Assembly: GCF_003334335.1 (NCBI RefSeq)
Contig: NZ_QOWQ01000019.1
Direction: 5' to 3' (one strand)
Source: Escherichia coli
GTDB taxonomy: Bacteria; Pseudomonadota; Gammaproteobacteria; Enterobacterales; Enterobacteriaceae
Length of the DNA stretch: 64,000 nucleotides
The notes beneath the pieces were generated by a model. The model did not search any database, was not told the origin of the DNA, and saw only the letters and a list, made by a program, of their open reading frames with translations. Positions 63,318-63,925 of this stretch are shown piece by piece; the stretch's first letter is position 1; each line of letters starts with the position of its first letter. Made by a program: the position numbers and the translations under genes.

Positions 63318-63360
63318 CACCTCATTCTGACAAAAGATTAAATCTTGTCAGAATGAGGTG
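63318..63360. repeat. perfect 16-bp inverted repeat (hairpin) overlapping the ycjD ribosome-binding site and start codon
   Basis: CACCTCATTCTGACAA - 11 nt - TTGTCAGAATGAGGTG; the right arm contains GAGG and the GTG start of ycjD. Confidence 0.7.
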
Positions 63361-63711
63361 ATAGATAAAATTAAATCAAATGCGCGTGATTTAAGACGCA
63401 ATCTCACTTTGCAGGAACGAAAGCTCTGGCGATATCTTCGCAGCCGACGTTTTAGTGATTTCAAATTTCGCCGTCAACATCCAGTGGGGAGCTACATTCT
63501 CGATTTTGCTTGCTGCTCGGCGCGTGTAGTCGTTGAGCTGGATGGTGGGCAGCATGATTTAGCAGTTGCCTATGATTCCAGGCGCACTAGCTGGCTTGAG
63601 TCGCAGGGCTGGACCGTGCTGCGTTTCTGGAATAACGAGATTGATTGTAATGAGGAGACGGTGCTGGAGAATATTCTGCAGGAACTGAACCGCCGGTCAC
63701 CCTCTCCCTGA
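63358..63711 (+). CDS. ycjD: DUF559 (Vsr-like endonuclease fold) protein YcjD
   Basis: 117 aa, GTG start; MIDKIKSNARDLRRNLTLQERKLWRYLRSRRFSDFKFRRQHPVGSYILDFACCSARVVVELDGGQHD matches recalled YcjD. Confidence 0.85.
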   Translation: MIDKIKSNARDLRRNLTLQERKLWRYLRSRRFSDFKFRRQHPVGSYILDFACCSARVVVELDGGQHDLAVAYDSRRTSWLESQGWTVLRFWNNEIDCNEETVLENILQELNRRSPSP

Positions 63712-63757
63712 AAGAGCGAGGGGGCAGACCGAGCCGAATAGCTGTTGTGGTGAAAAC

Positions 63758-63925
63758 ATGGAGACGGTGCTGGAGAATATTCGGCAAGGTCTGAACCGTC
63801 CCAGCCATCGCCATGAAAGGGTTAGGGGCTGTATGAGCCTGTTTGTTGCTGGGGTAACAATATTTGCACAATACGGTCCCCTCGCCCCTCTGGGGAGAGG
63901 GTTAGGGTGAGGGGAAAAGCGCCCA
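63758..63925 (+). repeat. degenerate duplicate of the ycjD 3' end followed by a G/C-rich palindromic element
   Basis: GGAGACGGTGCTGGAGAATATTC occurs at 63654-63676 (inside ycjD) and again at 63760-63782; the second copy would encode METVLENIRQGLNRP... versus the YcjD tail EETVLENILQELNRR; then CCCCTCGCCCCTCTGGGGAGAGGGTTAGGGTGAGGGG with internal dyad symmetry. Confidence 0.55.

Follow-up and report, generated by a model that had tools for sequence, protein, structure and literature searches.

Hairpin and BoxC repeats as the two ends of a DUF559 gene cassette at the ycjD locus of Escherichia coli

The gene ycjD encodes a nuclease-fold protein of the DUF559 family and lies near the 3′ end of a 64,000-nucleotide stretch of an Escherichia coli genome (contig NZ_QOWQ01000019.1; hereafter the window, all coordinates without a locus name being those of the window). 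A perfect hairpin runs up to its start codon, and its 3′ end is followed by a partial copy of itself and a G/C-rich dyad. We favor, at somewhat better than even confidence, a reading in which the hairpin, the tail duplication and the dyad are the two ends of one DUF559 gene cassette that carries a near-silent, leaderless nuclease gene and BoxC terminal repeats. The anatomy, with the ends of a conserved DUF559 cassette and BoxC as its terminal repeats, is well supported; from it we infer a leaderless start with occlusion of read-through transcripts, and a nuclease that acts on BoxC. The parts of the cassette are as follows.

63293–63312, plus strand: hairpin 1 (hp1), a degenerate terminator-like stem, TTCTGAA-N6-TTCCAGA, the first element of the enterobacterial DUF559 cassette
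63317–63361, no strand assigned: hairpin 2 (hp2), a perfect 17-bp stem with an 11-nt loop, ending on the first base of the native start codon
63327–63354, plus strand: sigma-70 promoter-like sequence CTGACA-16-(TGt)CAGAAT within the hairpin arms, with a predicted transcription start at 63361
63358–63711, plus strand: ycjD as annotated from a GTG start, 117 aa, DUF559 / Vsr-like PD-(D/E)XK endonuclease-fold
63361–63363, plus strand: position of the native start codon; the window has ATA, where E. ruysiae and other alleles of E. coli have ATG
63654–63759, plus strand: duplication unit 1, comprising the final 55 nt of ycjD plus the stop codon, then a degenerate BoxC arm and a tail
63697–63724, plus strand: degenerate BoxC-type element in reverse orientation, CCCTCTCCC-TGAAA-GAGCGAGGGGG, over the ycjD stop
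63760–63865, plus strand: duplication unit 2, the "decayed copy", 76% identical to unit 1
63879–63914, plus strand: BoxC / PIT / TMECO no. 9, type A with one stem mismatch, CCCTCGCCCCTCTGGGGAGAGGGTTAGGGTGAGGGG, inverted relative to the element at the ycjD stop

Conserved elements on either side of the gene

We took 80 DUF559 loci from one-genome-per-species contigs and added further loci by exact-protein look-up. Enterobacterial DUF559 genes occupy six neighborhoods (between sapF and fabI, downstream of hemW, and between yggM and trmB, cysP and yfeX, lysR and bcsG, and a GNAT gene and ybdK), and all six share the same non-coding parts around the open reading frame (ORF), in the order hp1, hp2, ORF and BoxC elements. 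In these relatives hp1 reads CTGGAA-N6-TTCCAG, with the covarying versions CCGGAA/TTCCGG and CCTGAA/TTCAGG, and a T-run often comes next. The left block of hp2 is CATTCTGAC and its right block TGGCAGAGTG, and the 3′ arm reaches the start codon. Within hp2 lie a −35 hexamer (C/A)TGAC(A/G), a spacer of 16–17 nt and a TG-extended −10 hexamer CAGA(G/A)T, which leaves about 6 nt to the ATG. At the other end of the cassette, the stop region reads CCCTCACCCCGGCCCTCTCCC-TGA-AAGGGAGAGGG and is followed by a spacer and an inverted CCCTCGCCCCTTTGGGGAGAGGGTTAGGGTGAGGGG. The hemW site of E. coli is empty and has its own unrelated terminator, which argues that hp1 and hp2 travel with the gene.

At the E. 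coli locus the arms of hp2 (63317–63333 and 63345–63361) are 100% complementary. The perfect hairpin of the first-pass annotation is therefore real, and at 17 bp it is one pair longer than the 16 given there. RNA folding, which that annotation had proposed as a check, yields a very stable stem with a minimum free energy of −35.4 kcal/mol (z = −6.1), a value reached by 0 of 200 shuffled sequences. Only three close inverted repeats (12-nt seed) are present in the window; hp2 is the longest of them, and its arm sequence occurs once. A separate perfect hairpin is located at 26816–26850, with 16-bp arms AATATGCCTGATGGTG / CACCATCAGGCATATT and a 3-nt loop. As a Rho-independent terminator hp2 does not qualify: its stem is rich in A/T, ATAGATAAAATTAAATC rather than a T-run comes after it, and the terminator scan made no call on it. 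A search of the hairpin against Rfam (E ≤ 10) returned sub-threshold microRNA-type matches only, which are meaningless.

Pairing of the start region was judged from folds of the individual sequences rather than from an alignment consensus. Positions −15 to +3 are at least 70% paired in 11 of 17 enterobacterial leaders, and z is −3 or lower in 12 of 17. A hairpin absent or not conserved at orthologous ycjD loci would have spoken against the first-pass annotation; pairing over the start is in fact a conserved trait of these relatives. The outer stem covaries between lineages (CACCTCA/TGAGGTG, CATCCC/GGGATG, CGCTCC/GGAGCG, CCCCCA/TGGGGG), and leader geometry is kept across genera at about 60% protein identity. 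RNAalifold found no consensus for 15 leaders because the stems are offset between lineages.

The Vsr-like endonuclease-fold that had been proposed for the product is borne out on several counts. YcjD matches profile NF007294 at 267.8 bits (cut-off 218), PF04480 is precomputed for all YcjD homologues, and D49, E60, D62 and H66 are invariant among them. The only solved relative, PDB 3HRL, is matched at E = 7e-36. Among the PADLOC defence profiles, no family matches YcjD at E ≤ 0.01. A DUF559 protein of Caulobacter, VsrA, triggers the SOS response when its sites are unmethylated and can act as a damaging nuclease in vivo (PMC12907096).

BoxC elements at the ends of DUF559 genes

The G/C-rich dyad noted downstream of ycjD is real. 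Its sequence, CCCTCGCCCCTCTGGGGAGAGGGTTAGGGTGAGGGG at 63879–63914, equals entry 9 of the 23 BoxC copies of MG1655 (K-12 1,351,204–1,351,239; Table 1, PMC4666352) and agrees exactly with the BoxC definition, namely CCCTC(T/G)CCC, a loop, GGGAGAGGG, TTA or CCG, and GGGTGAGGG, with a total length of 34–37 nt. BoxC is found in all 5426 E. coli genomes, at a median of 16 places per genome, and ycjD is a single-copy gene present in 3378 of the 5426. The element, also called PIT or, as an intrastrand-triplex motif, TMECO, was reportedly described by Bergler in 1992 and Bachellier in 1999. A 2015 study by Holder et al. describes BoxC as always intergenic, unlinked to mobile elements or gene classes, and a mark of hypervariable loci whose mechanism is unknown; ycjD and endonucleases are unmentioned there (PMC4666352). 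For the first-pass annotation, a match to an unrelated known repeat family would have undone its view of the tail. The dyad does belong to a known family, BoxC/PIT/TMECO, but one that proves to be linked with the gene.

This tie emerges from a survey of 61 diverse small DUF559 loci. In 49 of them the stop codon has a CCCTCTCCC-loop-GGGAGAGGG palindrome no more than 100 nt away, at 18.7 times its density elsewhere, and this stop-codon palindrome is conserved across phyla. The stop codon itself falls anywhere between 70 nt before and 60 nt after the palindrome, and this variable position indicates that the protein tails PSPRPSP, PLPQAGEG and PSPASGRGE are a translated DNA element and not a protein motif. 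In 37 of the 61 loci the palindrome also stands 10–130 nt upstream of the start, in the opposite orientation. Where both copies are present (31 loci), the upstream copy and its own 3′ copy share 75% reverse-complement identity, compared with 63% for non-self pairs, and the own partner ranks 1–3 of 31 in 22 loci. The result, in Proteobacteria and beyond, is a pair of terminal inverted repeats (TIRs) of 40–45 bp around the small DUF559 ORF. Lineage-specific variants, those in the loop and outer box among them, co-vary between the two repeats of one locus. Locus L068, for example, has a 44-nt inverted repeat with 2 mismatches, and in L083 the repeat spans about 48 nt.

Two further features of the element deserve mention. 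A single central stem mismatch recurs across phyla (loci L005–L084), with a left G opposite a right A in 15 of 157 copies and a left T opposite a right C in 14 of 157, and corresponds to the "A mm" type of E. coli. Judged from sequence, the pairing of such a mismatch with a Vsr-like mismatch-nicking fold is suggestive. In K-12, type A and type B BoxC elements form pairs that face inward, with a spacer of about 28 nt conserved at three of five sites, and this composite of about 100 bp looks like a DUF559 unit without its ORF. Inward pairs are found in L088–L091 (164.5 kb, 624.6 kb, 3046 kb and 3239.6 kb), and the spacer common to three of them reads taat.ttcgcacc.gtgctggcctgttc.

At the ycjD stop, CCCTCTCCC encodes the ..SPSP end of the protein, the TGA stop sits in the loop and GAGCGAGGGGG forms the right arm. 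This copy has lost 12 nt, the A box CCCTCACCCCAA, which other alleles keep; a 12-nt loss at the ycjD 3′ end is likewise recorded in PMC12817139. The exact 23-nt repeat that had been pointed out between the end of ycjD and 63760–63782 (63654–63676 = 63760–63782) extends to 39 nt at 90% and proves to be the core of a 2 × 106-bp tandem duplication. The two adjacent 106-nt units are 76% identical (78 of 102 positions), and their alignment scores 85 against −14 ± 8 for shuffled sequences, so the suspected footprint of recombination or duplication is a true duplication. Tandem Repeats Finder did not call it in this region, and direct alignment was needed.

Compared with the single 3′ end of E. ruysiae, E. 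coli has 106 nt (K-12) or 119 nt (strain CB209) more, and the duplication joints fall within the A box, between CACCCT and CACCCCA. The units differ by 24% and the flanks of the two species by about 5%, which makes an old duplication that was later deleted in E. ruysiae likelier than a recent insertion. Some E. coli alleles (147–158 aa) have the two units fused through a different deletion. A gene-specific duplicate of the coding end was found in 0 of 49 other DUF559 loci and so is peculiar to E. coli. What does recur downstream of DUF559 genes, in L012 (3350–3900), L024 (3354–3600) and L066 (3340–3900), is tandem amplification of a BoxC-type element together with its spacer, which in [Erwinia] mediterraneensis reaches six copies at a period of about 103 nt. 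The known recombinational instability of BoxC would account for the duplicated tail as well as for the deletions that vary it. Among predicted inversion targets, DUF559 shows a 14-fold enrichment (PMC9881135), in keeping with repeats that overlap the coding end. No inversion between the repeats was seen among four E. coli alleles and E. ruysiae, all of which are collinear.

Start codon, putative promoter and the sapF–fabI locus

Annotation starts ycjD at GTG (63358–63360), and GAGG (63355–63358) had been taken as its Shine-Dalgarno (SD) sequence. The two overlap and leave no SD spacing, so GAGG cannot serve this GTG. In three other E. coli alleles and in E. ruysiae the sequence is GAGGTG-ATG-GAT, where the window has ATA at 63361, and homologues in Kluyvera, Enterobacter, Klebsiella and other genera start at a methionine aligned with 63361. 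It follows that the start codon of the family has been lost in this allele by mutation of ATG to ATA, and that annotation falls back on the GTG one codon upstream. The exact ATA 40-mer occurs in 1422 of the 3378 ycjD-positive E. coli genomes. In this K-12-like allele ycjD is probably no longer translated, and for K-12 ycjD a start at GTG is doubtful. The earlier proposal of a sequestered start stands insofar as a very stable stem does enclose the start region; the assignment of GAGG and GTG is not supported, the native ATG being at 63361.

The arms of hp2 also contain a promoter-like sequence. A promoter scan places a 9/12 match with a TG extension at 63327–63354, and CTGACA-16-CAGAAT is listed as the promoter of ycjD in a genomic SELEX (systematic evolution of ligands by exponential enrichment) study of RpoD holoenzyme (PMC3946193). 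The −10 hexamer ends at 63354, and the seventh base beyond it is 63361, the A of the native ATG. All 16 ORF-bearing leaders have a spacer of 16–17 nt; the gap between −10 and ATG is 6 nt in 13 of the 16 (4–7 nt overall), and TG precedes the −10 in 13. In three haplotypes that carry the eef efflux genes and lack the ORF, the stem is kept and the spacer is just 9–15 nt. Owing to the symmetry of the palindrome, an identical promoter-like site lies on the minus strand (63351–63324), pointing into sapF. A 38-codon ORF runs antisense to the 5′ end of ycjD (63348–63464, minus strand), and antisense transcription and translation at this end are mentioned in PMC12817139.

This geometry predicts an mRNA whose 5′ end is the A of the ATG. 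The cassette promoter would begin transcription there and so produce a leaderless message that is free of the hairpin. Transcripts that enter from sapF would be stopped in part at hp1, and those that read past it would carry the full hairpin against a start codon with no usable SD and would escape translation. The net outcome would be a potentially DNA-damaging nuclease that is near-silent and insulated from its neighbors. The damage caused by the Caulobacter protein at unmethylated sites makes such tight silencing plausible.

The 3′ end of the window holds, in order, sapD, sapF, ycjD and the insertion sequence IS421, which separates ycjD from fabI. The sequence is identical to that of strain 4/2-1, and K-12 agrees with it in sequence except that IS421 is missing. 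The gene upstream of the cassette is:

62484–63290, plus strand: sapF, the last gene of the sap operon, from which read-through enters the ycjD cassette

IS421, of the IS186 family, is inserted directly 3′ of BoxC (63923–64000; L106 3233–4572) and is missing from K-12. Its junctions show the direct repeat GGGAAAAGCGCCC, which indicates that the G/C-rich BoxC flank served as its target; the right limit of the feature studied here (63925) is this insertion junction. The RefSeq annotation of K-12 lists no repeat features at the ycjD locus.

In phylogroups A, B1 and C, ycjD takes the place of the eefRABCD efflux operon (PMC12817139). The ycjD and eef haplotypes lose homology immediately past the hairpin at the sapF end of the locus and immediately past BoxC at the fabI end. 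The final four codons of sapF differ synonymously, aaagatcgctaa in the ycjD type and aaggaccgttag in the eef type (63279–63304 versus L002/L003 9289–9297), which places a recombination breakpoint of the ycjD/eefRABCD exchange inside the end of sapF. The eef haplotypes retain the hairpin between the convergent sapF and eefD. Its arms read CACCTCATTCTGAC...GTCAGAATGAGGTG in K-12, CACCTCATCCTGA...TCAGGATGAGGT(G) in O157 and CFT073, and GCCTCATTCTGAC...GTCAGAATGAGGC in a third Escherichia haplotype. These two compensatory base-pair changes indicate that the stem is maintained without ycjD, so the notion that it exists solely to control ycjD finds no support. In Enterobacter and Klebsiella, sapF has no hp2 and is followed by unrelated terminators, which weakens the idea that hp2 is the ancestral sapF terminator. 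One arm of the Enterobacter terminator, AAGGATTAAAT (L100 2008–2080), resembles the loop of the E. coli hairpin, AAGATTAAATC (63331–63344); this likeness may be accidental, or it may be what is left of an ancestral terminator of sapF.

Competing explanations and relation to known systems

Several observations weigh against the cassette reading as a whole. The one K-12 table of transcription starts to include ycjD gives weak starts inside sapF only, with none at the hairpin or the ATG (PMC3415461 supplement), and the promoter match is moderate, at 6–9 of 12 positions across leaders. Because the leaders are homologues of one another, the geometry they have in common does not count as independent evidence, and templated mutation can produce "compensatory" changes within a DNA palindrome even where selection plays no part. 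Within Escherichia, the ratio of nonsynonymous to synonymous polymorphism (pN/pS) of ycjD is 0.3–0.65, a sign of weak constraint only. The E. coli locus has no upstream BoxC and does not itself display the TIR architecture of non-enteric relatives, both of its elements being 3′ of ycjD. BoxC persists in 2048 E. coli genomes (38%) that lack ycjD, and inspection of six loci revealed no target-site duplication at the TIR ends. The hairpin hp2 could itself be homologous to a left BoxC repeat, in that CACCTCA resembles the A box, but the likeness is too weak to claim.

The same hairpin could instead belong primarily to the 3′ end of the sap operon, as a terminator or RNA stabilizer that in eef strains serves the convergent eefD as well, and stand at the start of ycjD only incidentally. 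It does follow sapF in every Escherichia haplotype examined, and its pairing is kept through C:G to T:A and A:T to G:C changes even where ycjD is absent. We nevertheless regard this as unlikely, given a stem with no T-run behind it and no call in the terminator scan, the unrelated terminators behind sapF in Enterobacter and Klebsiella, and the recurrence of both arm motifs, CATTCTGAC on the left and TGGCAGAGT on the right, in the same geometry in DUF559 cassettes beside unrelated genes. Retention of the stem in haplotypes without ycjD also counts against a riboregulator that hides a GAGG SD and a GTG start in a sap–ycjD transcript until melting or processing switches translation on. The great stability of the stem, and a start region that is paired with covariation in most enterobacterial relatives, are what one would expect of such a switch. 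It is quite improbable all the same: GAGG overlaps GTG and cannot be an SD, the native start is the ATG at 63361, and no melting factor or alternative pairing was found. Least credible to us is that all of this is a set of functionless relics, with a palindrome kept symmetrical by templated (quasi-palindrome) mutation, a neutral slippage duplication and a decaying ycjD. The lost start codon, the 12-nt deletion of the A box and the relaxed constraint within Escherichia speak for decay, but a leader geometry held across genera at about 60% protein identity, and a stop-codon palindrome that recurs from phylum to phylum, do not.

A different question is whether hp2 and BoxC are nick or cut sites of the DUF559 protein, with repair or recombination at these sites spreading or rearranging the cassette and those derivatives that lack the ORF, namely solo and paired BoxC, in a REP/RAYT-like or homing-like manner (REP, repetitive extragenic palindromic). 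The 40–45-bp TIRs that co-vary within a locus, the presence of the cassette in six contexts, and inward A + B pairs in K-12 whose spacer of about 28 nt makes them resemble a unit minus its ORF would all fit, as would the unexplained hypervariability of BoxC loci (PMC4666352) and the enrichment of DUF559 among predicted inversion targets (PMC9881135). Set against these are the lack of visible target duplications, the maintenance of BoxC in the 38% of E. coli genomes without ycjD, the absence of any mobile-element link in the 2015 BoxC study (PMC4666352), and four collinear E. coli alleles with no inversion. On balance we consider such cutting possible, though the weight of opinion here is against it. 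Similarly tentative is a broader proposal, that BoxC/PIT/TM elements at large are the terminal repeats of DUF559 cassettes together with ORF-less derivatives resembling miniature inverted-repeat transposable elements (MITEs). The nuclease would recognize their hairpin or mismatch form and drive their spread and hypervariability, as a non-HUH counterpart of REP–RAYT.

For the cassette reading, the consequences reach beyond one gene. Catalogues of BoxC/PIT/TMECO elements in E. coli go back to the 1990s; the elements are present in hundreds of genomes and mark hypervariable loci. DUF559 is a very widespread nuclease-fold family, for which the one in vivo function we met in the literature is that of the Caulobacter protein. 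An ORF bracketed by inverted BoxC, with its C-terminus encoded by one of the copies, offers each of these two orphans a testable partner. The reading also accounts for the conspicuous hairpin at the sapF–ycjD boundary, which is at the same time the breakpoint of the ycjD versus eefRABCD polymorphism, and it corrects the gene model of ycjD in K-12, where the native ATG no longer exists, initiation at GTG is doubtful and the gene probably stays silent.

The repeats themselves agree with published BoxC in that the ycjD stop region, like the PSPRPSP codons of its relatives, is the reverse complement of type B (GGGAGAGGG-CCG-GGGTGAGGG). They differ in position, since the published motif is always intergenic with no gene link, whereas the copies described here extend over a coding 3′ end and make up the TIRs of DUF559 genes. 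YcjD shares its fold family with Vsr, with Caulobacter VsrA (PMC12907096) and with Vsr-fold homing endonucleases such as I-Bth0305I (PMC3424549, Table 1), but has no adjacent methyltransferase, intron or intein. With MITEs and their autonomous parents the locus type has in common a short ORF between 40–45-bp TIRs, alongside ORF-less inverted BoxC pairs of about 100 bp in K-12; it differs in showing no target-site duplication and no DDE transposase.

Protection from outside transcription has reportedly been described for the left end of IS200 (Beuzon 1999) and for IS10 and IS50 (Davis, Simons and Kleckner 1985; Schulz and Reznikoff 1991). The ycjD cassette resembles these in the succession of a terminator-like stem at the boundary and a second stem that occludes the start in read-through transcripts, with its own promoter within or after the upstream arm. 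It has no transposase, and in place of an occluded SD it would rely on the leaderless start proposed here from the sequence. A parallel in overall layout is REP/RAYT (REPtron/REPIN), said to have been set out by Nunvar in 2010, Bertels and Rainey in 2011 and Ton-Hoang in 2012, where a single small gene likewise lies between inverted copies of a short palindromic repeat that is also scattered over the genome, alone or in inverted pairs. A gene flanked by an inverted dispersed repeat, as in a REPtron, is found in the DUF559 relatives, and in E. coli both elements are 3′ of the gene. The repeat is the G/C-block BoxC rather than a GTAG-REP, and the protein is a Vsr-like PD-(D/E)XK nuclease of the DUF559 family rather than an HUH/Y1 transposase, so the locus is an analogue of the REPtron and not a member.

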